Of a stretch of 64,000 bases of DNA, positions 10,404 through 38,356 are shown in pieces (positions within the stretch are counted from its first letter, which is position 1; every line of letters begins with the position of its first letter). Location of the stretch: contig JBAXOD010000002.1 of assembly GCA_037133435.1 (NCBI GenBank), positions 23,545-87,544 on the forward strand, given 5' to 3'. Below the pieces are notes generated by a model that made no database searches, was not told where the DNA came from, and was given only the letters and a program-made list of their open reading frames with translations. This stretch comes from Candidatus Moraniibacteriota bacterium. Its GTDB lineage: Bacteria; Patescibacteriota; Minisyncoccia; Moranbacterales; UBA1568. The translations under genes were made by a program, and so were the position numbers.

Positions 10404-10444
10404 AGTGATCTATACGATAAGGAATGGATAATTTTTTTCCGACT

Positions 10445-12304: not shown

Positions 12305-13234
12305 ATGGCATGGAAACTACCAACATTGGATGCGCTTACTGATGTAGGCAACATCATTTCAAACGTCGCCAACATCACAAAAACAGGCAAGGAGTACATG
12401 GAGAAACTTGCCCAACAGCAACTCGGATTCGAACTCTTCGGAATCGGAGATTTGAGCGATGAGGCCATCGTAGGCGTCGGTCTACGGACAGCAGCCAAAA
12501 AGCTCTACACTCCGGAAGCATCCGCCGACAAGGCGTTCAGTAAGCTCGATGCTTTCCTAAAATCGTTGAATAATCATCAACGCATTCGGCTACGTCGAAC
12601 CATCGCGAAACTCGTTTTGACTGAACGGCATGAAAACGTCGTCGTCGAAACGAAAACCGACAAAGACGGAGCCAAGACTGAAAAACAGGACCGGCGCCAG
12701 GTTGATTATGAATATACCGCGGATGACCCAAGGGTTCAGTTCATAATGAATATGGCAAAAGAACTCATAAAACCTGGTGGACCTGCTGCTGTAAAAGATC
12801 AACTTCTCGCATTCGACGTTATCCTGGAGAAGGCGATTTATGAAACCCTCTTCGATAAGGTAAATGAGGGCAAGAAAAAGGCCAAAGAATGGATAGACGC
12901 TACGGCAATTCCGAAAACGCAGGATTTCCTGAAAGGCATCTTAAACCGTTTGAATAGGGTTACAGATCCCACCGCGACACCGGATGCATTCATCACGGAA
13001 CAGCAGACAATCATAGCTTCCAGGGAAAATGAAATCCTGAGCGAAGCGAGGAATAACTCGTGGATTCATCTGTTGACGACATCCCTACCGGGACGGATTC
13101 TCTTGGGCATGATCGCACTCGTTGCGATACTGGCTCTCGGCACCGGACTCGGCTGGAAGGTTTTCTTCGGAGTGATCGGCCTCGTGCTGGTAGGTAAATA
13201 TGTGATCGGTTGGTACAAACAGCATCATCCATAA
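12305..13234 (+). CDS. Hypothetical protein, coiled-coil N-region with C-terminal TM hairpin
   Basis: 309 aa ORF in lower-GC segment; C-terminal ILLGMIALVAILALGTGLGWKVFFGVIGLVLVG hydrophobic pair; no recognisable motif. Confidence 0.5.
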   Translation: MAWKLPTLDALTDVGNIISNVANITKTGKEYMEKLAQQQLGFELFGIGDLSDEAIVGVGLRTAAKKLYTPEASADKAFSKLDAFLKSLNNHQRIRLRRTIAKLVLTERHENVVVETKTDKDGAKTEKQDRRQVDYEYTADDPRVQFIMNMAKELIKPGGPAAVKDQLLAFDVILEKAIYETLFDKVNEGKKKAKEWIDATAIPKTQDFLKGILNRLNRVTDPTATPDAFITEQQTIIASRENEILSEARNNSWIHLLTTSLPGRILLGMIALVAILALGTGLGWKVFFGVIGLVLVGKYVIGWYKQHHP

Positions 13235-14568: not shown

Positions 14569-15774
14569 TCAGGTCGTCGCGAAGAACGTGGCGATGGTGC
14601 GTACGATAATAAGCGAGACGAGCGCGACCGCCGTACCGATGATGGCGAACTTCACGATGTTCTTGGCGACATCCGTCTTCTTCTCGTCGCCACCGGCCGC
14701 GAAGTACATGAGCCCGCCGACGACGATCATGAGCATCGCCAGGATGCCGACCATGGCAAGGAGGAAGTTCAGCAGATTCGACGCGATCGTCATGAGCGAC
14801 GGGGCCGCGTTGACCTCGGCCGGGATATTGTTCGTGCCGTTGCCCCAATTGAGGATCGCCGCGATCTCCTTGAGGAAAGACGGGGCGGCAATACCGATGG
14901 CAAGACCGATCATCGCGGCCGTGATCATCTTTTTCGCGGTACCGATGTTCTTCTCGTTCCCGGCCGAGAAGATATAGAATATCCCGCCAAGAACCAGGAA
15001 CACGAGCGCGATCGTCACGATGACCCCTTGTGTATAGGCAAGGAACACTCCGAGCACTTCCTGGACGGTGTCGTATTTGAGCGGATTGATGAACTGGATC
15101 GTACTCCCGCCGGCCGTCGAAGATCCGGATGATCCGGTTGGACTCGTTGTACTTGACGAACAACACTTCTGAGTAGCGCTACCACAGTCACCCGCGATTT
15201 CACTGGTTCCACTCGGACATCCTGCACTGATATCGGCACACGTTCCGGACTGCGATGAACAGGTTCCGGTAGTGACCACGGCACCGCTCCCCACGCAGCA
15301 CTTGTTAGTGGTCCCGGAGCAATTTCCGTCCCAGGTCTTTCCAGTCGCACATGTCGCCGTCGCCCCTCCGGCCAGACACGCTCCCGACGCATGAGATGTA
15401 AGCCCAAGACAACCGGTGGTAGCGGTATTTCCACAACAATATGAGCTACCGGTACCGCAATCCGTCGCGCCGGTAAATTCTTCTCCCGGACAGCTTCCGG
15501 CCTGACATGCCCCTCCGAGATTCTGACACGTGATCGCGTCGTTATATGACTGACAGATAACAGTAATTCCGGTTGCCGCCAACTGGGATTTCATCGAATT
15601 ACAGTCGGTATACGTATAATTCTGAAAAGACGTCCCCGAACTGTTCGTATAGATCGAGCCGTTCGAATTCGCCAGACGATACTTGGTCGCCGCATGAACT
15701 GGTACCGTTTGGAAAAGCGCGAAAATCAGGACGATGAGCGATCTAGCGAAAAAACGGAATGATTTCGTTTTCAT
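14569..15774 (-). CDS. Secreted Cys/Gly/Thr-rich protein fused to VirB2/TrbC-like pilin domain (pilin paralog 1)
   Basis: Signal peptide MKTKSFRFFARSLIVLIFALFQTVPVHA; ~40 Cys in C-G-T-S-rich region; C-terminus VLGGIFYIFSAGNEKNIGTAKKMITAAMIGLAIGIAA matches the AGGDExKxxAKKM two-helix motif of the downstream paralogs; start at 15774 Met. Confidence 0.5.
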   Translation of the reverse strand: MKTKSFRFFARSLIVLIFALFQTVPVHAATKYRLANSNGSIYTNSSGTSFQNYTYTDCNSMKSQLAATGITVICQSYNDAITCQNLGGACQAGSCPGEEFTGATDCGTGSSYCCGNTATTGCLGLTSHASGACLAGGATATCATGKTWDGNCSGTTNKCCVGSGAVVTTGTCSSQSGTCADISAGCPSGTSEIAGDCGSATQKCCSSSTTSPTGSSGSSTAGGSTIQFINPLKYDTVQEVLGVFLAYTQGVIVTIALVFLVLGGIFYIFSAGNEKNIGTAKKMITAAMIGLAIGIAAPSFLKEIAAILNWGNGTNNIPAEVNAAPSLMTIASNLLNFLLAMVGILAMLMIVVGGLMYFAAGGDEKKTDVAKNIVKFAIIGTAVALVSLIIVRTIATFFATT

Positions 15775-15784
15775 AGTGTTCGTT

Positions 15785-16240
15785 TCAATATGCAGCCGAA
15801 CCGCCACTTCCCGACCCAGACCCGCCCGAGACGAGCTGCTGCACCGTATACACGATCATATACGCGAGGAGTCCGACCGCCACGCCGGTCGCGGCGTATT
15901 GCATCATGTTCTTCGCGCTTTCGGTCTTCTTCTCGTCGCCGCCTGCGAGCAGGTACTGTATGCCGGCCACCACGAAGAGAAGTATCGCGAGGATGCCGAG
16001 GATGCCCATGAGCCAATAGATGACGGTCGCGATGACCGGACCCGGCTCACGATCGGAAAGACCCGTCGCGGAGGATGTCGGCACGCAGACCCCGCTCATG
16101 AGTACGGTTTTTCCGTCCGAGCAGCTGGCCACCGCCCCGACCAGTTGCGGGGCGAACGTAAGAAGGACCAGAGCGGTCGCGAGTGCCGACTTGAGGAACC
16201 GTGTTGGGACGTTCATAGGAAAAGCAAAACTTTTTTTCAC
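15785..16240 (-). CDS. VirB2/TrbC-like conjugative pilin family protein (paralog 2)
   Basis: Signal peptide, then WLMGILGILAILLFVVAGIQYLLAGGDEKKTESAKNMMQYAATGVAVGLLAY two-helix hydrophobic core with charged loop. Confidence 0.5.
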   Translation of the reverse strand: MKKSFAFPMNVPTRFLKSALATALVLLTFAPQLVGAVASCSDGKTVLMSGVCVPTSSATGLSDREPGPVIATVIYWLMGILGILAILLFVVAGIQYLLAGGDEKKTESAKNMMQYAATGVAVGLLAYMIVYTVQQLVSGGSGSGSGGSAAY

Positions 16241-16327
16241 CTATCATCACTTTCGATAGTACTCCGATTTTTGAAAAAAAACAACTCCGCCACACGGCGG
16301 AGTCGTTCCGAAACGAAGGATGTGTAC

Positions 16328-16726
16328 TCAGTACGAGATGCTGTCCGCCGCGTCCGAACCGGTAAGGCTCGCAACCGTATTCACGGCGACATATCCGACG
16401 AGCGCGACGACGATCGCGATGCTCGCGTATACCATCATCTTCTTCGCGCTCTCGGTCTTCGTCTCGTCCCCCGCGGCGATGAGGTACATGACACCCGCTA
16501 TCACGAACGAGATGATGGCGCCGATACCGAGAAGCATCATGAGCCAGTTCATGACGTTGACGAGGATCTGTCCGGCCGAACTTTCCGTCATCCCGGCCGT
16601 GGTGGAAACGGTCTGATACGTGGTACCGGCACTGTCGATGGTCCCGAAACCGAGAGCACCAGTGACCGACGGAACCAAGAGCAGTGCGGCGACCAGGAAT
16701 GCGACCGACCGTTTGGATATCTTCAT
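16328..16726 (-). CDS. VirB2/TrbC-like conjugative pilin family protein (paralog 3)
   Basis: Start MKISKRSVAFLVAALLLVP with GGAGG SD 7 nt upstream; NWLMMLLGIGAIISFVIAGVMYLIAAGDETKTESAKKMMVYASIAIVVALVGY. Confidence 0.55.
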   Translation of the reverse strand: MKISKRSVAFLVAALLLVPSVTGALGFGTIDSAGTTYQTVSTTAGMTESSAGQILVNVMNWLMMLLGIGAIISFVIAGVMYLIAAGDETKTESAKKMMVYASIAIVVALVGYVAVNTVASLTGSDAADSISY

Positions 16727-16849
16727 ATGTTTACCTCCTGTGTTATTTTTTTCCGATGAAACATTCAGTGACACTTCAGATGCTACTCCAATTTTCACAA
16801 AAAAACAACTCCGCCCTGTGGCGGAGCCGTTCTTGTCATCGCGTGACGA

Positions 16850-17260
16850 CTAGTAGCTGATATTGTCCCCAGCGTTCGAACCCGTAAGGTTCGTGATGGT
16901 GTTGACGGCGACATATCCGACGAGTGCCACGACGATCGCGATGATCGCGTAGACCATCATCTTCTTCGCGTTGTCGGTCTTCGCCTCGTCCCCTCCGGCG
17001 ACGAGGTACAGGATACCCGCGATCACGAACGAGATGATGGCGCCGATACCGAGAAGCATCATAAGCCAGTTCATGACGTTGACGAGCATCTGTCCGATGG
17101 AGCTCTTCGTCATTCCGGCGTTCTGAGATACGGTCGTGTACGCCGTACCGCCGGTATCATATTTTCCGAATCCCGAGGTCGGTACGGCCGCGAACACGGC
17201 GACCGGTGCGACCAACGCGGCGACGATCGAGAACATGAGTATCTGTTTCAAAAATTTCAT
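16850..17260 (-). CDS. VirB2/TrbC-like conjugative pilin family protein (paralog 4)
   Basis: Signal peptide MKFLKQILMFSIVAALVAPVAVFA, GGAGG SD; core nearly identical to paralog 3 (NWLMMLLGIGAIISFVIAGILYLVAGGDEAKTDNAKKMMVYAIIAIVVALVGY). Confidence 0.55.
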   Translation of the reverse strand: MKFLKQILMFSIVAALVAPVAVFAAVPTSGFGKYDTGGTAYTTVSQNAGMTKSSIGQMLVNVMNWLMMLLGIGAIISFVIAGILYLVAGGDEAKTDNAKKMMVYAIIAIVVALVGYVAVNTITNLTGSNAGDNISY

Positions 17261-17310
17261 ATGTTCACCTCCTTTCCGTTATTTTTTATTTCCGTTTTCC
17301 ACTGTCCCGA

Positions 17311-17583
17311 TTATACCATAGCCGCCAGCTGTCGGATAGCGATCAGCATCAGGAGGACGACCGAGAGACCGAGGATGGAATAGCCGAGCATCCGTTTCGC
17401 CGATTTCGATTGCTCCTCGTCACCGCCGGCCATCATATACATCACACCGGCCGCGATCAGCGCGACAAGCGCGACGAGACCGAAGAGCGACAACACGAGT
17501 TCGAGGGCACGCATACCGACGAGCTGAAGCGGCGGGGCATCATCTATCACGCCGGACGCTTTCGCTACGGGGATAAGGTTCAT
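17311..17583 (-). CDS. Short VirB2/TrbC-like pilin family protein (paralog 5)
   Basis: 90 aa; LVALVALIAAGVMYMMAGGDEEQSKSAKRMLGYSILGLSVVLLMLIAI retains the AGGDE..K.AK+M motif. Confidence 0.4.
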   Translation of the reverse strand: MNLIPVAKASGVIDDAPPLQLVGMRALELVLSLFGLVALVALIAAGVMYMMAGGDEEQSKSAKRMLGYSILGLSVVLLMLIAIRQLAAMV

Positions 17584-19987: not shown

Positions 19988-20049
19988 GGAGAGATGACCG
20001 AGTGGTTGAAGGTACCGCTCTCGAAAAGCGGCAGGCCCGAAAGGGCCTC
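19988..20049 (+). pseudogene. 62-nt 5' fragment of tRNA-Ser(CGA) (acceptor through first half of T-loop), exact duplicate of 20391-20452
   Basis: ggagagatgaccgagtggttgaaggtaccgctctcgaaaagcggcaggcccgaaagggcctcgagggttcg identical in both copies; diverges inside T-loop. Confidence 0.75.
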
Positions 20050-20122
20050 GAGGGTTCGTCCGGCATACGCCGGACGCCCCGCGCATGCGGGGCGAATCCC
20101 ACATTTAAGGAGAAGGCTGCAT

Positions 20123-20386
20123 ATGTTCTATGTCTATATCCTCAGAAGCAAGAAAGACAATGACTTCTATATCGGGTCAACCGGAGATTTAAAAAGAAGA
20201 ATGAAAGAACATAATCGCGGAGTAGTGGAATCAACAAGACACAGACGACCTCTTGAACTCCTATGCTATGAAGCGTACAACTATAAAGAAGAAGCTCAAG
20301 CGAGAGAGCGTTTTCTAAAAAGCAGTGACGGAAAGAAAGATTTACGGAAACGATTGACTCGCAGTTTGGAAAAAAAGGAAAAATAA
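20123..20386 (+). CDS. Small GIY-YIG nuclease-domain protein (YhbQ/UPF0213-like)
   Basis: MFYVYILRSKKDNDFYIGSTGDLKRRMKEHN = GIY-YIG motif; AAGGAG SD 8 nt upstream of ATG at 20123; 87 aa. Confidence 0.75.
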   Translation: MFYVYILRSKKDNDFYIGSTGDLKRRMKEHNRGVVESTRHRRPLELLCYEAYNYKEEAQARERFLKSSDGKKDLRKRLTRSLEKKEK

Positions 20387-20390
20387 GTAC

Positions 20391-20477
20391 GGAGAGATGA
20401 CCGAGTGGTTGAAGGTACCGCTCTCGAAAAGCGGCAGGCCCGAAAGGGCCTCGAGGGTTCGAATCCCTCTCTCTCCT
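20391..20477 (+). tRNA. tRNA-Ser (anticodon CGA)
   Basis: Acceptor GGAGAGA/TCTCTCC, anticodon loop CTCGAAA, long variable arm CAGGCCCGAAAGGGCCTC, T-arm GAGGG-TTCGAAT-CCCTC. Confidence 0.85.
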
Positions 20478-20486
20478 CACTGAAAG

Positions 20487-20790: not shown

Positions 20791-20796
20791 AACGGA

Positions 20797-20833
20797 AATC
20801 AAAAGACTCCTGAATGGGGTCTTTTGATTTTTG
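20797..20833 (+). terminator. Rho-independent terminator
   Basis: aaatcaaaagactcctgaatggggtcttttgattttt. Confidence 0.65.
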
Positions 20834-21030
20834 TGTGTTGTGTTAATGGATGGATTCGAAATTGCAGGCATCTCAGGAAATCCGGCATTTCATTTGTCGC
20901 ATAGCGTCTGTCTTTCCACCGAAATGGATTGCGTGTCAAAGGTACGGATGATACAGTAAGGATGTTTTCGGATAATTCGGAAGATACCGAACAGTACCAT
21001 TCGAAGAATCAGACAGCCAAACGCTCTCAT

Positions 21031-22593
21031 ATGAGGATATCTTTGGAAAGTATTTTCTATCGCGTCATCCTTCCTTTCATGTTTCTTGAGGGATTTCTCC
21101 TGAGAATCGGCAATCTCAGAAAAGGTTTCTGGATCGACGAGTATCTCACCATCGAAACCGCACAGAAACTGACGTTTTTCAATCATACTGACACGGTCGG
21201 TCTCAACCCTTATTACGTCGGCCTCCGTCTGGTCGCATACCTCTTCGGTACCGACGAGACCGCCGTACGGATCATTTCCGTCCTGTTCGGTCTTGCGTCG
21301 GCATTCATCCTTTTCCTGATCGGAAAAAAATATTTTCACGAACGCGTCGGGCTCATCTCATCCTGTATCTTTCTGCTTACTCCCTTAGGCATATCGCTCG
21401 GTCAGGAAGTACGGCCATATTCCATGCTCCTTTTCCTTTCCCTGTGCCAACTATTTTTCTTTCTGGAAATATTGCAGTCCGTCTCCGAAGGTAAGCGGGT
21501 GAAAAATATCCGATTCATGCACCTCTCCGTCCTTACCCTGCTGATCCTGTTCATCCACCTGTCATCGGTATTATTCCTCGTCTCCGAAATGATCGTCCTT
21601 TCGTTCATAACGATCATCGAAAAACGGTGGCCGACGGACGTCTTCAAATATTATCTCGCTTGTTTGTTCCCGATGTTCGCGTTCTTCGCCTGGTTCTATC
21701 GTGACATCCTTACAAAACTCGGATTTATCGTTTCGGACCGGAATTACATTACCGTCTATTCAAACAGCGGACGCTCTTTCGCCGATGTGATCGTTTTCAT
21801 CCAGAATATCTCAACGGGACTCATCCCGGAGAAGCCAAAGGAGAGCCTGCTGGTATTCCTCCTTGCGCTCATTCTGATCGGAGCATCCATCGGCATTTGC
21901 CATTCTTTCATACGACGCGCCACGATCGTAAACGCCCTCTTTGGAATAACGATTCTCCGGATCTGCATCGGGCTGTCGATGCATGACTTCATTCCGAGAC
22001 ACGCGTTCATATTGACCCCTCTTTTTTCACTCTTTCTCGGAATATCCCTCTACAACCTTTCAAAAGTTCGCAGGGTTCCAAAGGTGGTCATTTTTTGCGT
22101 GTACGGATTCTTCATTCTGTCCCTCGCATATCTTTCACTGATTTCGCAGAAAGCCGAGAAAGCCGATCCGGGGAGACAATGGGGGTCGGTCGCCGATTTC
22201 GTCGAACGAAACGCCGGACCGGAAAAAGCGGTCATCGTGGCAGTCCCCTATCTGAAAGGGATATTCACCCATTATTATCATGGAACGACTCCGATCATCA
22301 CTATGGATGATTACAAGGAAAAATCACGAAATACCCTCATAGAGAACAATGAAATCGGTGTCTCGTTCATAAATCAAGAGCTGACCGATGCGTTGATCGG
22401 CAAGAGTATCGGGTTTCGAGAAATTCTGGTCGTCAAAGACGTTATCGCCTTAGATTTGAGCGATGTGGACAAACGCTTCGATACGGCTTTAGCAAGTCGT
22501 TTCATCCGGATCGATACAACCTGTTTCCCGGCTTCAGCGAAAATCCTGTGCGTCGAACGCTATCGAAGAGCCGACCAAGAGCCTATCCGTTAG
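21031..22593 (+). CDS. GT-C fold membrane glycosyltransferase (ArnT/PMT-like)
   Basis: ~12 TM, GFWIDE in first loop, N-terminal hydrophobic domain followed by C-terminal soluble domain; start at MRISLES. Confidence 0.5.
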   Translation: MRISLESIFYRVILPFMFLEGFLLRIGNLRKGFWIDEYLTIETAQKLTFFNHTDTVGLNPYYVGLRLVAYLFGTDETAVRIISVLFGLASAFILFLIGKKYFHERVGLISSCIFLLTPLGISLGQEVRPYSMLLFLSLCQLFFFLEILQSVSEGKRVKNIRFMHLSVLTLLILFIHLSSVLFLVSEMIVLSFITIIEKRWPTDVFKYYLACLFPMFAFFAWFYRDILTKLGFIVSDRNYITVYSNSGRSFADVIVFIQNISTGLIPEKPKESLLVFLLALILIGASIGICHSFIRRATIVNALFGITILRICIGLSMHDFIPRHAFILTPLFSLFLGISLYNLSKVRRVPKVVIFCVYGFFILSLAYLSLISQKAEKADPGRQWGSVADFVERNAGPEKAVIVAVPYLKGIFTHYYHGTTPIITMDDYKEKSRNTLIENNEIGVSFINQELTDALIGKSIGFREILVVKDVIALDLSDVDKRFDTALASRFIRIDTTCFPASAKILCVERYRRADQEPIR

Positions 22594-22735
22594 GGTCTCC
22601 GTCACGAGCCGTACGATCTTCGAGCGGAAAGGCGGGTAACCAGCGGATCCCTCTCCGTAGATACGGCGACAAGGGGTACGCGCGTGTACGCCGAAGATCA
22701 TAGGCGCAGGAGGTATGTTCCTAACGGATAGGCTC
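22579..22735 (+). mobile_element. 155-bp MITE-like element copy 2
   Basis: gagcctatccgttagg...cctaacggataggctc; overlaps stop codon of upstream gene. Confidence 0.65.
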
Positions 22736-22940
22736 TCAGTAGATGATAACAAACCCCCGAGTCAATCGATTCGCGATCCATCTTGTCACTCCGGTTTCAT
22801 TCCGATATCGTGATTGTCTGCGTCGAGAGGCTCCGGGAGCATTCCATGGTATCATCAGTGGGATAGGAATACCGGTAACCGGATATCGGAACAAGACAAA
22901 AAATCATATACCGAACGGCAAAAAACCACAGACAGAACCT

Positions 22941-24371
22941 ATGTCGAAACGAACACAGACGGTCATCCTCGGCGCCGGTCCGGCGGGATTATCGGCCGCG
23001 TACGAAATGAATGGGAGCGGCAGCGACATAGTCGTACTCGAGGCGGACCGATCGGTCGGAGGCATCAGCAAGACCGTCTCCTTCAAAGAATGCCTTTTCG
23101 ACCTCGGTGGACACCGATTCCATACCGATATTTCCGAAGTTTCACGGCTCTGGGAAAGCCTTCTGGGCGACGACTTCCTGACCCGACCGAGACTTTCCAG
23201 GATCCGCTACCGGGGGAAATTTTTCGATTATCCGCTCACGCCGATGAATGCCGTCTTCGGACTCGGCATGATCGATTCCATCGGTATCCTTTGGAGTTAT
23301 CTGGCCGCCCGCATGTTCCCCTCCAAGGAAGAGAGGACGTTTGAACAATGGGTATCGAACCGTTTCGGGAAACGACTGTTCGAAATTTTTTTCAAGTCCT
23401 ACACGGAAAAGGTCTGGGGAATCCCCTGCGATGAACTCAGTGCCGAATGGGCCGCACAGAGAATCGACGGTCTTTCCTTGTCCGTCGCGATCCGACAAGC
23501 CCTGTTCCCGGAACGAAATGGTAAGGTGAAGACGTTGATCGACGAATTCCGTTACCCGAAACTCGGACCAGGCATGCTCTACGACGAGATGATGCGCCGC
23601 ATACGCGAGCGTGGTGGACAGATCGAGACCGGTACGCGCGTCATAGGATTGCATGCCGACGGGAACAGGATTCGCAACATTCTCACGGAAGACGCGGATG
23701 GGAACGGCGCCGAGTATCCGGCAGACTTCCTCATCTCAAGCATGCCGATCGACGAACTCGTGACTATGATCCGGCCTGTTGCGCCCGAGGCCGTCATCGC
23801 CGCCGCAAACGGACTCCGTTATCGAAGTCTTGTCTCGGTCAGCCTCGTCCTCGATTGCCCGAACCCCTTCCCGGACAATTGGATCTACGTACACACGCCG
23901 GAAGTACGATTGGGCCGCATACAGAACTTCGGCAATTGGAGCCCTTCCATGGTCGAGCCCGTTGGACGGGTCGCCCTCGGATTGGAATACTTCTGCGACG
24001 AAGGGGACGACTTCTGGAATACGGACGATACCGCTCTCATCGCGCTCGGACTCGATGAGATGAGAAAGATCGGCATAGCGGGATATGACGGCTTTATCGA
24101 CGGGTTCGTGACGCGTATACCGAAGGCCTACCCCGTCTATCACGGTGCCTACCGAGAGAACGTCGCCATCTTACGAACGTACCTCGAAGGGTTTCGGAAC
24201 CTGCAGACGATCGGGAGAAACGGGATGTTCCGCTACAACAATATGGATCATTCGGTCCTGACGGGAATCCTGGCGGCCAAGAACATACCCGAAAAAAGAT
24301 TCGATCTTTGGGATGCGAAACGATATTCCGACGTTACTTCGATAACGGCCGACGAGGCGCTGGACATATGA
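22941..24371 (+). CDS. UDP-galactopyranose mutase (Glf)-family FAD-dependent enzyme
   Basis: VILGAGPAGLSAAYE Rossmann GxGxxG; GGHRFHTD, FEIFFKSYTEKVWGIPCDELSAEW and GRNGMFRYNNMD blocks align with Glf GPHIFHTD / YEAFFKGYTIKQWG / GRLGTYRYLDMD. Confidence 0.6.
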   Translation: MSKRTQTVILGAGPAGLSAAYEMNGSGSDIVVLEADRSVGGISKTVSFKECLFDLGGHRFHTDISEVSRLWESLLGDDFLTRPRLSRIRYRGKFFDYPLTPMNAVFGLGMIDSIGILWSYLAARMFPSKEERTFEQWVSNRFGKRLFEIFFKSYTEKVWGIPCDELSAEWAAQRIDGLSLSVAIRQALFPERNGKVKTLIDEFRYPKLGPGMLYDEMMRRIRERGGQIETGTRVIGLHADGNRIRNILTEDADGNGAEYPADFLISSMPIDELVTMIRPVAPEAVIAAANGLRYRSLVSVSLVLDCPNPFPDNWIYVHTPEVRLGRIQNFGNWSPSMVEPVGRVALGLEYFCDEGDDFWNTDDTALIALGLDEMRKIGIAGYDGFIDGFVTRIPKAYPVYHGAYRENVAILRTYLEGFRNLQTIGRNGMFRYNNMDHSVLTGILAAKNIPEKRFDLWDAKRYSDVTSITADEALDI

Positions 24372-26650
24372 AACACCGTTTCGGAAAAATTCCGACGACA
24401 CCGCGAGAAAGGATCTTCTCGTACCTGTTCCTGGTATGGATGGTCTTTTTCTTCGTCTTGCATACTGCGAACACGTGGCAACTCACCGAGAACAGCTTCA
24501 TCCCGGCGTACCTGATCGCTTTGGCGCTTTCTTCCCTTTTGGGACTAGTCATTCTCATCGCCTACCGGCTCTTCATCGTCTTACACGGAAATAGCGACGT
24601 ATCGATAGGAATCCCTGCCCTTTCCATAGCGATCATAGTCATCGTCATGACCGTCTTCAACATCGACCGGATCGTCTCCATGGACCCGACCGGACTCAGC
24701 GCCATTCCCGGTTTCGCCCTCGACTTCCTGAAATCGGTCTCGGTCGTCACATTGTTTCTCCTCTCCGCGTATCTTGTCGGCGATGCGCTCCTGGAATATT
24801 TCATGCCCCGCGTGTTCGGCAAAGGGGAAGGCGGTCCGATATCCGTCGCGATCGGAGTCGGAGTCTCCGGGTACTTTATCCTCCTCATCGATTTGTTCGG
24901 CATCGCCTACCCCTTGACCGTCTTCTTGTCCGCGATCGCTATCATTACCCTGTTCCGGAAGCGAGCAAAAGAACTCCTCAATTCCTTCATGACCAAGAAG
25001 TTGATCATCAAACCGGGATTACGGACCGAGAACGTCATAGCCGTTATCCTTATCATGCTGACGTTTCTCTCCTTTTTCCTGTCATACGCCGGCCTCGCCG
25101 TCGGAGGATGGGATACGTTCCATCAATATCTCGTCTTCCCGGAAACATACGCGAAATATCATACGCTCGTACCGTTCCCCTTCCATCCCCATTGGGGATT
25201 CCCCCAGCTGTCGGAAATGATATTCGAGGAAGGACTCCTCCTCGGCGACACACGGACGCCGTTTCTCCTCAACTTCGCGTTCATCACGCTCGGCTTCATC
25301 GGCTTTGCCGTAACCGCGAAAAAAATCGCCGGAAAATCCTTCGTATGGCCGCTCGCCGCATTCGCGTCGGTTCCCCTTCTGCTCCGGTTCTGGTCCGGAT
25401 ACCTGAAAGTCGAATCGATCCTCTTCCTGTTCGTCGCGGCGCTCTTCATGCTCCTTTGGAAGATCGCAAGACGGAAGGAGTCCAGCGACGGAAAATTCGG
25501 CCCGTGGGTACTCGTCGCCATCATGCTCGGACTGATGCTGTCCGTAAAATACACATCCTTCTTCATCGGTGCGGCATTGGCTGCCTCGCTTATTCTCTTC
25601 CACCGATCCTTCGACTTCGATTGGAAAAAGGCAGTCCTTGTCGCGGGCATCTCGATGATTTTCCTCTCCCCGTGGCTCATAAAAGACCAGCTCTATTATG
25701 GAAACCCACTCTACCCCGCGCTCCAGGGAAATGATCCTGTTTCGGAAAAGCTGGGAACAAACTGTCAGGCTTCTTTTATACAGATCTGTAACGAGGACAA
25801 TTTTGTGAACCGTCGCCCGGAAATGTTTCAAAAAGATTCCGTTCATCTTTCAAGTGCCTTCCTCACGACGCGACCGTTCATAATGGGAGACGGTTCTGAT
25901 ATCACTTCGACCGGACCGTTCTTCATGCTCTTCCTACCGCTTTTATGGTGGCTTCTTTTCCGAACCAAAGATCCATTTCTCCGCTTCCTCATATCATTCT
26001 CGGCGATATTCCTCGCGCTTGGCGTCTATTTCTTCACCGGACAGACCTGGTATCTTCTGCCGATGATGTTCCCTTTCATGCTCGCGCTCGCCTACGCGTG
26101 GAAAGAGTCGGAAGGAACCATCATCAATGCCATGAGCCGTTCCCTCATATTCCTGTGGATTTTCTTCCTTCTCACGGTCAACATATTCAGTTCAGGAACC
26201 GTGGAACTGGCCAAATATGCCAGAAGCGGATCAGGTCTCGGATACGCGCTGCAGGAAATCGGGAAAATATGTGGCGACCAGAGACGCCGCGACGCATATC
26301 TGGCATGGCAGGATGTGAATGATCTCATCTCCAAGCGCGACGGTGAAAGCACAGTCGTCTACGGGTTCATGGACCCTCAGGGATATTTCATCAAGGACTC
26401 TTTCCGTCATTTCATTCCGGACTTCTTCGGATACCTCTATACCTGCATATCGAAAAACGGCGACATCGGAGACGGGCTGAAGAAACTCGGTGTGACGCAC
26501 GTCCTGTTCGATGCGGCCGCACCGTCCGGCTGTCTTCAAAACGACGTGTTCCTCACCTGTCGCGCCTACTTCGGTTTCCGGGATTTCATCTCGACGCACG
26601 GCACACTTGTGAAAAAGGAGGGGTCGTTCGAACTGTATTCGATAGAATAG
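24368..26650 (+). CDS. Large polytopic membrane protein, putative GT-C-type glycosyl (galactofuranosyl/arabinosyl) transferase
   Basis: 760 aa, >14 TM, ATGA overlap with glf-like gene; assignment by context only. Confidence 0.35.
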   Translation: MKHRFGKIPTTPRERIFSYLFLVWMVFFFVLHTANTWQLTENSFIPAYLIALALSSLLGLVILIAYRLFIVLHGNSDVSIGIPALSIAIIVIVMTVFNIDRIVSMDPTGLSAIPGFALDFLKSVSVVTLFLLSAYLVGDALLEYFMPRVFGKGEGGPISVAIGVGVSGYFILLIDLFGIAYPLTVFLSAIAIITLFRKRAKELLNSFMTKKLIIKPGLRTENVIAVILIMLTFLSFFLSYAGLAVGGWDTFHQYLVFPETYAKYHTLVPFPFHPHWGFPQLSEMIFEEGLLLGDTRTPFLLNFAFITLGFIGFAVTAKKIAGKSFVWPLAAFASVPLLLRFWSGYLKVESILFLFVAALFMLLWKIARRKESSDGKFGPWVLVAIMLGLMLSVKYTSFFIGAALAASLILFHRSFDFDWKKAVLVAGISMIFLSPWLIKDQLYYGNPLYPALQGNDPVSEKLGTNCQASFIQICNEDNFVNRRPEMFQKDSVHLSSAFLTTRPFIMGDGSDITSTGPFFMLFLPLLWWLLFRTKDPFLRFLISFSAIFLALGVYFFTGQTWYLLPMMFPFMLALAYAWKESEGTIINAMSRSLIFLWIFFLLTVNIFSSGTVELAKYARSGSGLGYALQEIGKICGDQRRRDAYLAWQDVNDLISKRDGESTVVYGFMDPQGYFIKDSFRHFIPDFFGYLYTCISKNGDIGDGLKKLGVTHVLFDAAAPSGCLQNDVFLTCRAYFGFRDFISTHGTLVKKEGSFELYSIE

Positions 26651-26830: not shown

Positions 26831-27628
26831 ATGTCCGCAAAGAAGATAAGCGAGCTGTTCGATTTCACGGGAAAGACGGTCGTCGTCACCGGTGGCGCCA
26901 ACGGTATCGGCTACGGCATCGCGCGACGATTCGCGGAAGCGGGTGCGAACGTGGTCATTTCGGATATCAACGAGGAGGTCGGCGTCGCCAAGGCCGAGTC
27001 GCTCGGTGCGGAATTCGGTGGCAAGACCCTGTTCGTGAAGACCGATGTCTCTTCGGAAGAAGACGTGAAGGCGCTCGTCGCCAAGACGAAAGAAACGTTC
27101 GGCAGCCTCGATGTCATGGTGAACAACGCGGGTATCTTCCCCACCTCGCCGGTCCTCGATATGGAAGTCGGTTTCTGGGACAAGGTGCAGGCCGTGAACG
27201 GTCGCGGCGTGTTCCTCGGTTGCCGTGAAGCCGCCAAGGTCATGATCGGACAGGGCGGCGGCTCAATCATCAACATCGCCTCGATCGACGCCTTGCATCC
27301 GAGCATGGTGGGACTCGCGGCCTATGACGCATCCAAGCACGGCGTCTGGGGCTTTACCAAGAACTTCGCGCTCGAGCTCGCTCCGCACAAGATCCGCGTG
27401 AACGCGATCGCTCCCGGGGGCGTGGCCACCGAAGGCGTCGCCGCCATGAGCTCAGGCGTGCCGGCCATGACGGACGAACAGATGAAGGCCTTCCTCAACG
27501 CCATCCCGATGGGACGTTATGCGGAGCCCGACGAGATGGCGACGGTCGCCCTCTTCCTCGCGAGCGACGCGGCGAACTATATGACCGGATCGATCGTCGT
27601 CGCCGACGGCGGCTCGCTCATCGCGTAA
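26831..27628 (+). CDS. SDR family NAD(P)-dependent oxidoreductase
   Basis: TGGANGIGYGIARRFAEAGANVVISD cofactor motif, NNAG, YxxxK (YDASKHGV). Confidence 0.8.
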   Translation: MSAKKISELFDFTGKTVVVTGGANGIGYGIARRFAEAGANVVISDINEEVGVAKAESLGAEFGGKTLFVKTDVSSEEDVKALVAKTKETFGSLDVMVNNAGIFPTSPVLDMEVGFWDKVQAVNGRGVFLGCREAAKVMIGQGGGSIINIASIDALHPSMVGLAAYDASKHGVWGFTKNFALELAPHKIRVNAIAPGGVATEGVAAMSSGVPAMTDEQMKAFLNAIPMGRYAEPDEMATVALFLASDAANYMTGSIVVADGGSLIA

Positions 27629-27650: not shown

Positions 27651-27686
27651 GCCGGACCGGATCGTTTCCGGTCCGGTTTCGTTTTG
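27651..27686 (+). terminator. Rho-independent terminator after SDR gene
   Basis: gccggaccggatcgtttccggtccggtttcgttttg. Confidence 0.6.
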
Positions 27687-27961
27687 CGTTGACGTTCGTT
27701 TCACGGCATCTTGCCTGAAAATGAAAACGGATTATACTCTACGAGGTATACCCATACATAATCATTGACCGAAAGGATCGGAAACCGGGATATCCCTACT
27801 TGTTGAAAAGTCCCTCACAGAAATGTCATTCCGGCCTACGAGCCGGAATCTATGCCTTGGATCCCGGGTCAGGCCCGGGATGACAGCGTATTGTATATAT
27901 GCATTCTTGTTGTGTTTTCTTCAAAGTGCGGCATTCCACCTTTCCGAAAGAACCTACCGAT

Positions 27962-28987
27962 ATGGAAAACAAGAAAAAGATGCTCATAGAGCTCAATCGG
28001 AAGCATTCCGACATGTTCATGAGTCAGCGTCTGGAACGCGATCTGTATCTCGCGAATCACCCGACCAAGATCATCGCGTTCAAATGCATGGACGGACGTG
28101 TCCATATGCCGACCGTCACCCACACCCCGCTCGGCGTCATGCGCCCCTACCGGAATATCGGCGGCAAATTCGACCTCGGCTGGCCGCTTCTGAACGAATC
28201 GTTCGACCGGAGCGTCACGCGCGCGGTCACAAAGGGAAACCGTGTTCTGGTTCTCGTCACCTATCATTTTTCCGCGGGCGATACGCACCGTGGATGCGCC
28301 GGCTTCAAGTACGACTGCGAAGAATCAAAGCGTTCGACGGAACAGTTCCGCAAACAGATTCTGCGCGTCTACGGCGAGAACAACGGGGTCGTGTTCCCTA
28401 TCCTCGTCGGACTCGAGACGGACAAGGACGCGCTCATCTTTCACGGGGAACAGGGCGACATCATCGACGTCTCGACGATCACGGACGGGTCCGAGGACAA
28501 CCTGCACCAACTGTTCCGCGCGCTCTACCCCTCGATGCCCGATCGCATCCTCGCCGACCTCATTCCGCTCGTTTCCGGAAACCTGGCGCACGTGAACGAG
28601 ACGAAAAGCGGCAAGCCGGTGGAGGACCTCGTCCACGGCGAATGGATACTGGCGATCGGCAAGGGCTTCGACTGGCTGCATACCCCGAACATGGCGCTCA
28701 TCGTCGGGCCGTACGACCCGAACCTCGGCGAACCGATCACGACCGCGGCCGGCATCATCCGGTCCAACGTGAATGCGGGAAGGGCGGCCGGAGGATTCGT
28801 ACTGCTGTCGTCGGCCGTCTATGCCGACCCCGCGGAACGGAACCGGACGAAGGAACGCTCCCTCTACCTGAACCGGCTCTCCCAGGACATCATCCGGAAA
28901 AATTATCCGGAAATCGCGGATCTGATGCATTCGATGGCCGTCATCATGGACTCCGAAACGATGCGTATGGAATTGGTCGACGAATAG
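27962..28987 (+). CDS. Divergent beta-class carbonic anhydrase-like protein with ~150-aa C-terminal extension (paralog 1)
   Basis: CMDGR (CxDxR), RNIGG (cf. RNAGN), VLVLVTYHFSAGDTHRGCAG (HxxCxG) in beta-CA spacing; start MENKKKMLIEL. Confidence 0.45.
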   Translation: MENKKKMLIELNRKHSDMFMSQRLERDLYLANHPTKIIAFKCMDGRVHMPTVTHTPLGVMRPYRNIGGKFDLGWPLLNESFDRSVTRAVTKGNRVLVLVTYHFSAGDTHRGCAGFKYDCEESKRSTEQFRKQILRVYGENNGVVFPILVGLETDKDALIFHGEQGDIIDVSTITDGSEDNLHQLFRALYPSMPDRILADLIPLVSGNLAHVNETKSGKPVEDLVHGEWILAIGKGFDWLHTPNMALIVGPYDPNLGEPITTAAGIIRSNVNAGRAAGGFVLLSSAVYADPAERNRTKERSLYLNRLSQDIIRKNYPEIADLMHSMAVIMDSETMRMELVDE

Positions 28988-29097: not shown

Positions 29098-30183
29098 ATG
29101 TTTTGGGAAGGAGAAAAATATCCATGGGGCGACATGACGAATGAAGCAAGAATTAATCTGCTTCATTCGGAGGTTTTCCAAAAATACTCGGAAGAATACG
29201 TGAGCCATGAACCGACACGGAAAATGATACGGGAGAAGTATAATATCGCCGTTACATTCGTATTTTGTAGCGATCCGAGACTTCGCGACATTTTTTTCAA
29301 TCTCGTTCCGGGAGAATCCTGGTATAAACGAGGTATCGGAAGCATCGTGAACGATGCGGATCCTTTGTTCCGGGCTACATTCTCACGACTGCTCGACAAA
29401 CACGAAGTGAGACATTTGGATCACTTATATATCCAGACGTATCACTTCTCCAAAAGCGACGGTCAAAAATGCTGTGCTGGCCAGAAATATGATGCTGACA
29501 AAGCAAGGCTTTCGGGAGAATTCGAAACGGAAACGGCGCGAAGAATCTATCGCTTCAAAAGGTTCGTCTATCCGATCCTAATCGGAATCGAAACCGATCT
29601 TGGTGAAGCGATCATTCACGGGTACGACGGTTCGATGCTCAGAAGCTCGGAAATCGGATCAATGTCAGACGATGCGATCTATACTCGTCTTTATACCATG
29701 TTTCGGGATACGACGTTCAACAAGTCTTTACCGGAGAAACTAAAATACTATATCCTGGAGCGACTCATCAAAGGAAATGTGCGTTACATTTCGGAAGATC
29801 ATACCGAAACGAATGAAGTCCTGCAAAGACAACATCAGTTCGTACTCGGTATGGGAACGGGACTCTTCGCGTTTCCGGCTGGGCGTGTTCTCATCATCCC
29901 GCCGTTTCCCCTCGATAAGAAACTGGAGCTCATCAAAGGAGCTCGGTTGATCAGAAAAGTTTTCGATGCCGGTCGAATTAAGCACGAAAACGGATTCATC
30001 CTTTCGACCTCAACCATGTTCGACAATCCGGATGACTGGCCATGGGCAGCCGAAGAAACGCTTCGCTTCGCACGATTCGTGGATAAGACCATCAAAAAAG
30101 GAGCGAAAGATCTATATGAAAGAATGACGGTATTGCCGGTTATCATGAACCGTATCGACCGCATGACCACGATTATCGATTAG
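29098..30183 (+). CDS. Beta-carbonic-anhydrase-like paralog 2 (CSDPR retained, Zn-ligand His replaced: SDGQKCCAG)
   Basis: Collinear with paralog 1 (TYHFS, PILIGIETD, C-terminal domain); His of HxxC absent. Confidence 0.4.
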   Translation: MFWEGEKYPWGDMTNEARINLLHSEVFQKYSEEYVSHEPTRKMIREKYNIAVTFVFCSDPRLRDIFFNLVPGESWYKRGIGSIVNDADPLFRATFSRLLDKHEVRHLDHLYIQTYHFSKSDGQKCCAGQKYDADKARLSGEFETETARRIYRFKRFVYPILIGIETDLGEAIIHGYDGSMLRSSEIGSMSDDAIYTRLYTMFRDTTFNKSLPEKLKYYILERLIKGNVRYISEDHTETNEVLQRQHQFVLGMGTGLFAFPAGRVLIIPPFPLDKKLELIKGARLIRKVFDAGRIKHENGFILSTSTMFDNPDDWPWAAEETLRFARFVDKTIKKGAKDLYERMTVLPVIMNRIDRMTTIID

Positions 30184-38312: not shown

Positions 38313-38356
38313 CGTCCGTATGATAATGATTCCGATGGCACGTGAAACTGAAGACG

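Follow-up and report, generated by a model that had tools for sequence, protein, structure and literature searches.

A UDP-galactopyranose mutase-like flavoenzyme encoded beside two GT-C glycosyltransferases in Candidatus Moraniibacteriota suggests an extracytoplasmic furanosylation pathway

Organization of the locus

The window analysed here is a stretch of 64,000 nucleotides from a Candidatus Moraniibacteriota genome, and its gene calls are identical to those of the public metagenome-assembled genome. The ORF list and the sequence place three genes, referred to below as A, B and C, in the same orientation on the + strand within 21031-26650, as described in the sequence-only reading of this DNA, which had taken them for a mutase flanked by two membrane glycosyltransferases. 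Gene A (21031..22593, +; 520 aa) is followed by a 347-bp spacer (22594..22940, +) in which a reading of the sequence, an Rfam scan and a promoter/terminator scan revealed neither an Rfam family nor a strong terminator. The ORF of gene B extends over 22743-24371, within which translation starts at the ATG of position 22941, giving a product of 476 aa (22941..24371, +) with the same length as the NCBI gene call MEI6649945.1. Gene C (24368..26650, +; 760 aa) begins within the end of B, and the ATGA in which its start codon overlaps the stop codon of the mutase, a feature of the earlier description, can be read directly at 24368-24371.

A consensus scan detects a terminator-like hairpin 5' of gene A (20792..20834, +; a 19-bp stem and then a run of T), which might mark where the unit is bounded on its 5' side. 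The hairpin is only suggestive, because such sites are no more numerous in this region than the shuffled expectation. Directly downstream of C lies a classical short-chain dehydrogenase of 265 aa (SDR; 26831..27628, +; Pfam adh_short_C2, E 2e-67), whose score for the NCBIfam PRK07231 "glucose 1-dehydrogenase" subfamily is 253 bits (cut-off 215). The SDR is possibly co-transcribed with the module, and it is present in the syntenic locus L007 and absent from the related loci L089, L090 and L091; within the module it is likely to be a passenger. A strong terminator-like hairpin found by the promoter/terminator scan after the SDR (27651..27677, +; an 11-bp stem with 8 GC pairs) is the probable 3' end of the unit.

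Gene B: a putative UGM-like mutase

Public annotation gives B, an FAD enzyme, no more specific name than "NAD(P)/FAD-dependent oxidoreductase" (NCBIfam PRK07208, "hypothetical protein"), and B matches the model NF005548 (NCBIfam PRK07208.1-4) with 626.8 bits, compared to a cut-off of 389. Its top sequence matches in the PDB are eukaryotic UDP-galactopyranose mutases (UGMs; E 2.6e-21), with weaker matches to bacterial Glf (9e-9) and protoporphyrinogen oxidase (PPO; 1e-7). When the AF2 model of B (pLDDT 88) is searched against the PDB with Foldseek, the top 33 matches are all UGMs, with TM-scores of 0.82-0.84 to T. cruzi UGM, and hhalign aligns B with E. coli Glf over the full length (probability 98.3%, E 1.9e-14). 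B nonetheless lies below the curated cut-offs of the canonical Glf models (Pfam GLF, 14.1 vs 26.3 bits; TIGR00031, 33.2 vs 303.75 bits).

The translation of B carries DLGGHRFHTD, SYTEKVWG and GRNGMFRYNNMD, for which counterparts align in E. coli Glf and A. fumigatus UGM (AfUGM). Among 40 homologues with 50-87% identity, the invariant residues (counted from a translation starting at 22938, i.e. +1 relative to the true Met) are G57-G58-H59 of the His loop, Y98-P99, F151-F152-x-x-Y155-T156-E157-K158-x-W160, W315, Y317, R327, W334, Y398-P399, R427, Y433, N435 and D437, while at least 90% of them have R175. From the alignment and from the AfUGM literature we take the conserved residues of B to be matched to AfUGM H63, Y104, F158, W167, R182, W315, Y317, R327, Y334, R447, Y453 and N457. 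B Y398, which lies beyond the aligned region used here, presumably corresponds by its motif to AfUGM Y419. In the UGM structures of K. pneumoniae, D. radiodurans and E. coli it is the motif FFxxYTEKxWG that binds uridine.

The closest solved relatives of B in both sequence (E ~1e-21) and fold are the eukaryotic-type UGMs (A. fumigatus 3UTE/3UKH, T. cruzi 4DSG/4DSH), which have a similar size (~470-510 aa) and share with B the GGH His loop and the equivalents of R182, W315, Y317, R327, R447, Y453 and N457. The identity is, however, no more than 18-23%; B shares with bacterial Glf a Thr at the positions of Q107 and N163, which in AfUGM contact uridine; the flap around N207 lacks conservation; and B is a bacterial protein whose gene adjoins GT-C, GtrA and GT2 genes. 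E. coli K-12 Glf (b2036; PF03275, TIGR00031) has the motifs H-x-F-H-T, YTEKxWG, YP and GR...Y.Y.D in common with B, but B is ~110 aa longer and far under both curated thresholds, and the product of canonical Glf goes to Leloir galactofuranosyltransferases of the cytoplasm, WbbI for example, rather than to GT-Cs. The earlier assignment of B to the UGM family is thus upheld, and sequence, predicted fold and conserved motifs support a UGM-like enzyme in preference to an amine oxidase or a phytoene desaturase.

Genes A and C: GT-C membrane glycosyltransferases

Both membrane proteins are GT-C glycosyltransferases, in agreement with the earlier proposal, and neither comes out as an unrelated transporter. 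A passes the Pfam PMT_2 threshold (35 bits, cut-off 26.1), is named "glycosyltransferase family 39 protein" by NCBI, and has a WIDEY acidic motif directly after its first TM helix; a jackhmmer search started from A retrieves C as well as GT-Cs from 26 of the 88 loci that contain B. C begins with a block of extra TM helices, continues with a GT-C core and ends in a soluble domain (residues ~660-760). Its core motifs are GWD(249)TFHQY and the Lys in SVKYTS, with conservation of at least 90% at both D249 and K394. The family profile of C (11,297 representative relatives) reaches PMT_2, PMT, GT87 and DUF8201 proteins, and the top Foldseek matches of its AF2 model (pLDDT 83) are ArnT, STT3 and AftA.

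In common with ArnT and PMT (GT83/GT39, Pfam PMT_2), A and C both have an acidic residue after the first core TM helix; they differ in that their identity to these enzymes is only 9-14%, and C has in addition ~100-200 extra N-terminal residues with added TM helices and its own C-terminal domain. C has no special resemblance to transferases of the GlfT, EmbC or AftA type, with which a comparison had been suggested: GlfT is a GT2 enzyme, the Emb/Aft Pfam families match neither A nor C, and C is structurally nearer to ArnT, PMT, ALG and AglB than to the mycobacterial Emb/Aft proteins.

Genomic neighbourhood of B homologues

The pairing of B with a GT-C recurs across bacterial phyla: such genes adjoin B in other Moraniibacteriota, Geobacter, Clostridia, Planctomycetota and Actinomycetota (of the PMT_2, PMT or DUF2142 type in Moranbacteria, Geobacter and Clostridia), and GT-C-like or polytopic neighbours are present at 52 of 80 genome loci. 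The B-C pair is kept in L007, L089/L090 and L091 with overlapping or adjacent stop and start codons, at a C identity of only 30-58%. GtrA, polyprenyl-phosphate-type GT2s and GalE are also frequent beside B. GtrA is in some loci fused to B or next to it, and GalE lies immediately 5' of GtrA-B in L001 and L008 (TIGR01179, 446 and 404 bits, cut-off 262). A UDP-glucuronate decarboxylase (UXS; E 1e-103 to human UXS1) is fused N-terminally to B in five genomes and adjacent in a sixth, and among family-conserved columns only L347I separates the UXS-linked B proteins from the rest. The GT2s beside B in L091 and L004 align over their full length with ArnC, PpgS, AglJ, DPMS and GtrB, while B is abutted by a GT2-PMT_2 fusion in L073 and by a GT2 fused to a 12-TM protein in L033. 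A conserved domain with two TM helices forms the C terminus of about 20% of B proteins, and small neighbouring proteins consist of this domain alone.

A Pfam census of 106 ORFs near B in 17 genomes counts 20 GT2, 8 GT1/GT4 and 4 PMT_2 proteins, and many B homologues are found beside ordinary GT2 or GT4 genes with no detectable GT-C. The cyanobacterial partner of B is a ~340-aa GT2, similar to HpnI, MftF and EpsD and with no DxDxQ motif, which looks like a lipid-type enzyme rather than a clear polyprenyl-phosphate synthase. The 64-kb window contains no GT2, GtrA, GalE, UXS, Ugd or epimerase gene, and GT2, GtrA, GalE and UXS were not found in the syntenic 21 kb of L007. We found no description of the module in the available literature.

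A candidate furanosylation pathway and its alternatives

GT-Cs use lipid-phosphate-linked donors, not UDP-sugars, so a mutase cannot feed A and C directly, and the steps between them call for a polyprenyl-phosphate GT2 together with a flippase. The galactofuranose (or related furanose) glycan pathway of the sequence-only reading, which remains the most economical reading, thus has to be amended, since a direct supply from mutase to GT-C is wrong and the two necessary components are absent from the window; as they are missing from L007 as well, the middle of the pathway is missing locally. UGMs work by an attack of flavin N5 on C1 with loss of UDP; the ring is then opened and closed again, and UDP is put back. 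By such chemistry B, with its flavin reduced, would convert a nucleotide-sugar pyranose into a furanose, most likely UDP-Galp into UDP-Galf or alternatively UDP-L-Arap into UDP-L-Araf; a GT2 would load the furanose onto polyprenyl phosphate; a GtrA-type or other small membrane protein would flip the lipid-linked furanose across the membrane; and A and C would use it as the donor to furanosylate acceptors outside the cytoplasmic membrane, probably at the cell surface. We give slightly better than even chances to the locus being part of such a pathway, in which case a polyprenyl-phosphate-furanose intermediate would exist and the GT2 and flippase would presumably be encoded elsewhere in the genome. 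The substrate of B is taken to be a UDP-sugar because GalE adjoins GtrA-B and UXS is fused to B. GalE adjacency favours galactofuranose, as was first suggested, whereas the UXS fusions in other genomes suggest L-Araf or Xylf, and the choice is unsettled.

The components can be compared with those of systems already described. Mycobacteria form their decaprenyl-P-arabinofuranose donor with DprE1, which belongs to another flavoenzyme family, and DprE2, acting on a lipid-linked sugar, and we know of no organism in which a lipid-linked hexofuranose donor has been demonstrated. Loci related to B share a polyprenyl-P GT2, a small flippase and a GT-C with the three-component systems of extracytoplasmic glycosylation (GtrA/GtrB/GtrC, ArnC/ArnT, PpgS/Rv3632/Rv3779 and the C. 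youngae pentofuranose system; PMC11127046, PMC8035078), of which the window holds the GT-C components only. The known pentofuranose systems obtain the lipid donor from PRPP and epimerases, and PMC11127046 mentions neither a mutase nor a flavin, whereas here a flavoenzyme would form the furanose at the nucleotide-sugar level. A bacterial route to UDP-L-Araf by Ugd, UXS, a 4-epimerase and an FADH2 mutase has been established experimentally for C. jejuni HS:15, where the mutase is reported to be a UGM homologue and serves a capsule built in the cytoplasm (PMC10615251). The UXS-B fusions and GalE-type epimerases parallel this placement of a UGM-type mutase downstream of UDP-xylose synthase, a likeness of pathway logic that has no counterpart in the window, which lacks UXS, Ugd and epimerase.

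Since many B homologues lie beside ordinary GT2 or GT4 genes, B may simply be a true UDP-sugar mutase that supplies UDP-Galf to cytoplasmic Leloir transferases encoded elsewhere, with A and C functionally independent and using polyprenyl-P-mannose, -glucose or -Ara4N, for example in protein O-mannosylation or lipid modification. The census, in which GT2 and GT4 are the commonest neighbours, is consistent with such independence, as are the lack of a GT2 and flippase to couple B to the GT-Cs and the annotation of A as GT39, the protein O-mannosyltransferase family. We nevertheless regard it as unlikely, given that B and C are translationally coupled through the ATGA overlap, that their pairing outlasts the divergence of A, the SDR and the flanks in relatives, that GT-Cs adjoin B in unrelated phyla, and that GtrA-B and GT2-GT-C fusions occur at B loci.

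The extracytoplasmic pathway could also run in another order, with a GT2 making polyprenyl-P-Galp and B contracting the lipid-linked sugar to polyprenyl-P-Galf, by a logic like that of DprE1/DprE2 on decaprenyl-P-ribose. The two-TM domains, the GtrA fusions and the Thr residues that stand in place of the uridine- and ribose-contacting Q107 and N163 of AfUGM would fit a membrane-bound substrate, but the uridine-binding motif FFxxYTEKxWG is invariant, the fusion to a soluble UDP-xylose synthase and the adjacency of GalE indicate a UDP-sugar, the UXS-linked members are not split off by any further conserved column, and membrane tethering is equally well explained by the channelling of a thermodynamically disfavoured UDP-furanose to a membrane GT2; this order is accordingly judged improbable. 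Slightly less probable still is that B merely shares ancestry with UGM and is a redox flavoenzyme of the amine-oxidase, PPO and phytoene-desaturase superfamily which, for instance, saturates or desaturates the polyprenol carrier or oxidises a sugar. It belongs to Pfam Amino_oxidase (PF01593, 75.8 bits), its public names are oxidoreductase or protoporphyrinogen oxidase, and PPO structures match its model (E 1e-28, TM 0.75-0.79), in Foldseek only ~1000-fold worse than UGMs. In sequence, however, UGMs outscore PPO by 14 orders of magnitude. The family-invariant residues are, moreover, the UGM binders of diphosphate and galactose together with the His loop, and the partner genes encode UDP-sugar enzymes and glycosyltransferases rather than haem or carotenoid functions. 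The furanosylation module preferred here suggests that furanose sugars are added at the cell surface from a lipid-linked donor.

The nearby pilin array

Glycosylation of the pilins encoded nearby had been offered as an idea for the role of the module. The five ORFs of this array do exist (14569-17583, -), but all five belong to Pfam PF18895 T4SS_pilin and are thus VirB2/TrbC-like pilins, not type IV pilins. They are encoded on the opposite strand to A, B and C, with four genes and one tRNA between, and no array is found beside the B-C pair in L089, L090 or L091, which leaves the idea unsupported. The array is syntenic with the module only in L007, the closest relative.

Organization of the locus

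The locus consists of three genes on the forward strand, called A, B and C here, whose boundaries are identical to the public NCBI gene calls: A (21031-22593, 520 aa; named "glycosyltransferase family 39 protein" by NCBI), B (open reading frame 22743-24371 with its true start ATG at 22941, 476 aa; "NAD(P)/FAD-dependent oxidoreductase") and C (24368-26650, 760 aa; "hypothetical protein"). The overlap of B and C that had been noted from the sequence alone is real, the TGA of B and the ATG of C sharing the ATGA at 24368-24371. Downstream of C on the same strand lies a classical short-chain dehydrogenase (SDR) gene (26831-27628). A terminator scan, which is suggestive only, places a terminator-like hairpin upstream of A (20792-20834, forward strand), a strong one after the SDR gene (27651-27677, forward strand) and none in the intergenic regions of the four genes, so that A, B, C and the SDR gene may form a single transcript. 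An Rfam scan finds no family in the spacer between A and B. The SDR was ruled out as a DprE2-like partner, since it is of a generic glucose-1-dehydrogenase/FabG type and its linkage to the B-C pair is not conserved; it is probably a passenger.

The flavoprotein and its active site

B is a member of the NCBIfam family PRK07208.1-4 (NF005548, "hypothetical protein"), in which it scores 626.8 bits against a curated cut-off of 389, with its residues 4-461 aligned to positions 2-462 of the 488-position profile (residue numbers of B are one higher than those counted from the true Met). It cannot be filed in the curated family of Glf, the canonical bacterial UDP-galactopyranose mutase (UGM), because its scores against the two Glf models lie far under threshold, at 14.1 bits for Pfam GLF PF03275 (gathering threshold 26.3) and 33.2 bits for the equivalog TIGR00031 (cut-off 303.75). 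B does match Pfam Amino_oxidase PF01593, a broad, fold-level family, with 75.8 bits against 19.8. Models for two more specific assignments lie far below their cut-offs: protoporphyrinogen oxidase (PPO), for which the specific model PRK11883 gives 61 bits against a cut-off of 517, and CrtI, for which crtI_fam gives 33 bits against 238. In a comparison with all solved structures, the closest to B in sequence are the eukaryotic UGMs of A. fumigatus and T. cruzi (E 2.6e-21 to 1.5e-19), while bacterial Glf is found at E 9e-9 and weaker and PPO at E 1e-7. An AlphaFold model of B, built with 40 homologues as input (pLDDT 88), has UGMs as all of its best 33 Foldseek matches in the PDB, with TM-scores of 0.82-0.84 to T. 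cruzi UGM, and PPOs rank after these with E-values about 1000-fold weaker. The profile of the B family aligns to E. coli K-12 Glf over the whole length in hhalign (probability 98.3%, E 1.9e-14).

The hhalign alignment, from which all equivalences between B and Glf were read, pairs the Glf motifs GAHIFHT, GYTEKQWG, YYPV and GGRLAEYKYYDM with GGHRFHT, SYTEKVWG, AYPV and IGRNGMFRYNNMDH in B, whose FAD Rossmann motif GxGxxG takes the form ILGAGPAGL. Conservation was assessed in 40 homologues with 50-87% identity to B. Among these the His loop G57-G58-H59-R60-F61, which aligns to GGH63 of the A. fumigatus enzyme (AfUGM) and to the E. coli GAHIFHT, is invariant, and so are F151, F152, Y155, T156, E157, K158, W160 and G161 in the segment FFKSYTEKVWG, which aligns to the E. 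coli GYTEKQWG; FFxxYTxKxWG is the motif by which uridine and ribose are bound in the structures of UGM from K. pneumoniae and D. radiodurans. Y98-P99, W315, Y317, R327, W334, Y398-P399, R427, Y433, N435 and D437 are likewise invariant in this set, and R175 is conserved in at least 90% of it. The equivalences with AfUGM were read from a phmmer alignment, and we take these residues of B to correspond to H63, Y104, F158, W167, the flap residue R182, W315, Y317, R327, Y334, R447, Y453 and N457 of AfUGM, which serve to bind the diphosphate and the sugar next to the flavin; Y398 is assumed to correspond to Y419 from the likeness of the motifs (xAYPVY in B, xGYPTP in AfUGM). B differs from AfUGM at Q107 and N163, both of which are replaced by Thr, as they are in bacterial Glf. 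The sequence-only reading of B as UGM-like is thus borne out by its nearest relatives in sequence and fold and by the motifs and residues that it keeps. Since membership of the Glf family fails and the UGM residues are conserved, B carries essentially the complete UGM catalytic apparatus outside the curated Glf family.

The membrane proteins

Both flanking membrane proteins had been proposed to be glycosyltransferases of the GT-C type, and each proves to be one. A matches Pfam PMT_2 PF13231 over residues 65-208 (35 bits against 26.1) and is placed in GT39 by NCBI. The sequence of C alone reaches 22.7 bits against PMT_2, just under the gathering score of 26.1, and comparing it with the PDB sequences gives no match; a profile of the C family, made from a few close relatives, reaches PMT_2, PMT, GT87 and DUF8201 proteins, and an exhaustive HMMER search gives 11,297 representatives as relatives of C. 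In both fold searches the leading matches to the model of C (pLDDT 83, pTM 0.88) are exclusively GT-C enzymes, the best from Foldseek being ArnT, STT3, AftA, DPY19, AglB and ALG9/12, and by these profile and fold matches C is a polytopic protein with a GT-C fold like that of the solved GT-C enzymes, not a transporter. The outcome that the earlier reading had named as its refutation, an amine-oxidase subfamily for B together with transporter matches for the membrane proteins, was therefore not what the searches returned. D249 of C, which lies in GWDTFHQY right after the first transmembrane (TM) helix of the core (220-240), and K394 are each at least 90% conserved, and in the sequence of A the D-E of FWIDEY follows the first TM helix. 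No Emb/Aft family of Pfam matches A or C, and C is closer in fold to ArnT, PMT, ALG and AglB; assignment to the Emb or AftA-D arabinofuranosyltransferases was rejected. A and C were also rejected as recent paralogues of each other, given an hhalign probability of 20% and a connection by iterated search only; when iterated from A, this search arrives at C and, in 26 of the 88 loci that contain B, at their GT-Cs.

Neighbours of the flavoprotein in other genomes

The B family is large and widespread. At least 8000 candidates were scored, every one with E <= 1e-10, and scanning a single genome for each species gives at least 600 matches, so that the PRK07208 clade occupies at least 600 species-representative genomes from at least 15 phylum-level lineages, among them cyanobacteria, Acidobacteriota, Planctomycetota, Myxococcota, Gemmatimonadota, Bacillota, Actinomycetota and Pseudomonadota. 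In Moraniibacteriota-like relatives the conserved core is the B-C pair. One such locus (L007) has a PMT_2 protein, B, a 755-aa C homologue and the SDR; two others (L089 and L090) lack A and the SDR, and in them B is joined by a C homologue of 741 aa, after which come the DUF4446 and IF2 genes that the window also has; and in a further one (L091) overlapping genes encode a GT2 of 236 aa, then B, then a C homologue of 771 aa. Another Moranbacteria genome has the order PMT_2, GalE, GtrA, B, DUF2142. More distant arrangements include GT2, B and two PMT_2 genes in Geobacter, PMT, GtrA and B in Clostridia, B, GT2 and PMT_2 on a metagenome contig, and a 684-aa GtrA-B fusion on two metagenome contigs (L002 and L003).

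The frequencies of such neighbours were determined from raw ORFs, purpose-built HMMs and TM counts in a sample of 80 loci from as many species genomes, all about 46-53% identical to B. A GT2 is present in the flanks of B in 43 of the 80 loci, and in 26 it is a 280-420-aa protein on the same strand and at most 500 bp away; in 52 there is, near B, a membrane protein no shorter than 380 aa that is GT-C-like or polytopic. A Pfam census in 17 genomes, covering 106 ORFs at distances of up to 3 kb from B, counts GT2 20 times, GT1/GT4 8, PMT_2 4, Epimerase 3 and GtrA 2, with the proviso that Pfam undercounts GT-Cs, C itself being among those missed. A domain-only HMM finds seven GtrA proteins near B, an underestimate since the model is narrow; GtrA adjoins or is fused to B in six loci (L001, L002, L005, L008, L032 and L087), and GT2 adjoins B in L091, L004, L006 and L073. 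In the planctomycete locus L073 the neighbour directly beside B is a 936-aa GT2-PMT_2 fusion (9530-12340), and in the Phycisphaerae locus L033 it is an 882-aa fusion of GT2 to a 12-TM protein (3724-6372). These fusions link a lipid-sugar synthase and a GT-C in one pathway. The GT2s found in L091 and in L004 can be aligned over their full length to the polyprenyl-phosphate sugar synthases ArnC, PpgS, AglJ, DPMS and GtrB, with scores below the equivalog cut-offs.

In filamentous cyanobacteria (L010-L016, L049, L062 and L075) the close partner of B, 0-230 bp away, is a GT2 with a length of about 340 aa and a C-terminal pair of TM segments. It is not clearly GtrB-like, its top PDB matches being generic GT2s and its NCBIfam matches HpnI/MftF/EpsD-like, and the DxDxQ motif is absent from it. 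Because it resembles these lipid-type GT2s, there are hints that what the cyanobacterial pair makes might be a furanosyl-lipid and not a polyprenyl-phosphate donor.

The sugar substrate

In L001 and L008 GtrA-B is directly preceded by an SDR gene, which proves to be GalE (446 and 404 bits; cut-off 262). In five genomes of Pseudomonadota, three of them Parvularculaceae, one Thiotrichales and one unclassified, B is fused in a single ORF to an N-terminal UDP-glucuronate decarboxylase, that is, UDP-xylose synthase (UXS; E 1e-103 to human UXS1): L039 6915-9470, L048 5631-8240, L060 6999-9452, L064 1857-4610 and L067 1242-3812. In a sixth genome (L077, 5291-6259) UXS and B are separate genes 2 bp apart. 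UGMs accept sugars of the Gal/L-Ara configuration, and the UXS-B fusion points to a pentose route (L-Araf or Xylf) in the organisms that bear it. A comparable route has been established experimentally in C. jejuni HS:15, in which UDP-Glc is converted through UDP-GlcA, UDP-Xyl and UDP-L-Arap to UDP-L-Araf, the last step being carried out by an FADH2-dependent UGM-type mutase (PMC10615251). No family-conserved column differs between the UXS-linked and the other B proteins, only L347I being seen, and for this reason the sugar is not called from B itself; in the window it may be Galf, L-Araf or something else, with Galf favoured for Moranbacteria in view of the GalE neighbour.

A conserved domain with two TM segments, about 125 aa in length, forms the C-terminus of about 20% of B proteins (18 loci, such as L006, L018, L022 and L050), and the same domain is encoded by one or two small stand-alone genes beside B in L006 (8842-9159), L018 (9812-10156), L022 (9849-10190) and L038 (7614-7979 and 9540-9839). 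The domain has no Pfam family, and the window lacks it; it could serve as an anchor in the membrane or as a small partner resembling a flippase.

Proposed pathway and alternatives

These observations can be arranged as a pathway of four steps. B would make a UDP-furanose, as its homology and conserved residues suggest; a GT2 would move the furanose onto polyprenyl phosphate; a small membrane protein would flip the lipid-linked sugar; and the GT-Cs A and C would pass the sugar to extracytoplasmic acceptors. The last three steps are drawn from gene linkage, from gene fusions and from what holds in general for GT-C enzymes, namely the use of lipid-phosphate donors. More broadly, PRK07208 would be a large uncharacterised branch of UGM-type enzymes (over 8000 clusters when grouped at 90% identity), nearer to the eukaryotic UGMs than to Glf, whose product is placed on polyprenyl phosphate to give a hitherto undescribed lipid-linked hexofuranose (or L-arabinofuranose) donor, which dedicated GT-Cs then use for extracytoplasmic furanosylation. 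We advance this tentatively, as a serious possibility that stops short of being probable. With the same reservation, the route would be the hexofuranose counterpart of the mycobacterial DPA pathway, working even in reduced CPR genomes.

In the window an iterated HMM for GT2, like Pfam applied to the large ORFs, detects no GT2; the narrow GtrA HMM and Pfam on part of the small ORFs detect no GtrA; and GalE and UXS are absent over the 64 kb. All four could lie elsewhere in the CPR genome of about 1 Mb. It is conceivable, then, that B serves Leloir enzymes only and that A and C are independent of it. Set beside the B-C core of the relatives and the GT2-GT-C fusions next to B, this arrangement seems unlikely. 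Still less probable is that the substrate of B is itself a lipid-linked sugar: the two-TM domain fits a membrane-proximal step, for which a lipid substrate is not required, and the GalE neighbour and the UXS fusions tie B to UDP-sugars. That B is a redox enzyme, for which its place in the amine-oxidase fold might speak, is very improbable beside its UGM-type active site.

If the lipid-linked furanose pathway is correct, it adds a flavin-mutase-fed route to the lipid-linked furanoses; the only such donors known to us are the PRPP-derived pentoses of mycobacteria (DPA) and of the three-component systems of Citrobacter. To our knowledge the well-studied cases of Galf incorporation always involve UDP-Galf and cytoplasmic Leloir transferases. 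Furanose sugars (Galf, Araf) do not, as far as we know, occur in mammals, and their biosynthetic enzymes serve as targets for drugs and vaccines. In the literature searched, which took in only a small part of the subscription journals, neither PRK07208-type mutases nor a mutase linked to GtrA and GT-C is described, and the papers on Actinoplanes EPS and on lactococcal CWPS offer nothing relevant to lipid-linked Galf. The account of the three-component pentofuranose systems mentions neither a mutase nor a flavin (PMC11127046), and the present locus suggests a glycosylation system of the three-component type fed by a UGM-like mutase. The pathway would also give a function to a very large family whose members at present go by "NAD(P)/FAD-dependent oxidoreductase", by "hypothetical" or by "protoporphyrinogen oxidase", and to about 11,000 uncharacterised GT-C representatives, and it would indicate a surface glycan in Moraniibacteriota, on whose glycan biochemistry the literature searched offers nothing. 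The likeness of the B family to eukaryotic UGMs may bear on the origin of the eukaryotic enzyme. Cultivable carriers of B include Micromonospora, Geodermatophilus, Geomonas and filamentous cyanobacteria.

Pilin genes and other features of the window

The pilin genes upstream of A had prompted the idea that pilins are the glycosylated target, and this idea is not sustained. The five tandem ORFs at 14569-17583 (reverse strand), one of them of 412 aa, are all PF18895 type IV secretion system (T4SS) pilins (VirB2/TrbC-like), and conserved linkage to type IV pilin genes is not seen; between them and A lie genes for a solute-binding protein and for a methyltransferase, then a GIY-YIG ORF and a tRNA-Ser; and the synteny is kept in L007 only, the B-C pairs of L089, L090 and L091 being flanked otherwise. 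Together with a VirB4/TraG-like P-loop ATPase gene 23 kb from them (40433-42769, reverse strand), the pilin genes look like a T4SS-like apparatus. Large ORFs without a Pfam match lie beside the ATPase gene (35715-38582, 43947-45812 and 45927-48404). The GIY-YIG-like ORF (MFYVYILRSKKDNDFYIGST...) and the tRNA-Ser(CGA) gene (20391-20478), which begins right after its end, together take up 19994-20478, close upstream of A.

The sole further glycan-related gene pair seen in the window is a GDSL-like acylhydrolase (7-666, forward strand) adjoining an Acyl_transf_3 membrane O-acyltransferase (724-1992, reverse strand), which could be concerned with glycan O-acylation. Beyond the SDR gene, a tandem pair of paralogous ORFs, each about 360 aa long (27899-28987 and 29098-30183, forward strand), occupies a slot that holds a SulP/STAS transporter in the syntenic L007; the first of them has a weak match to CsoSCA_cat, the catalytic domain of the carboxysome-shell carbonic anhydrase (24.7 against 21.5 bits). 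The segment 46000-51200 has a low GC content of 0.44-0.48, against about 0.55 elsewhere, with a tyrosine recombinase gene at its end (50194-51177; Phage_integrase E 6e-45), and may be an integrated element bearing the large unassigned ORFs.
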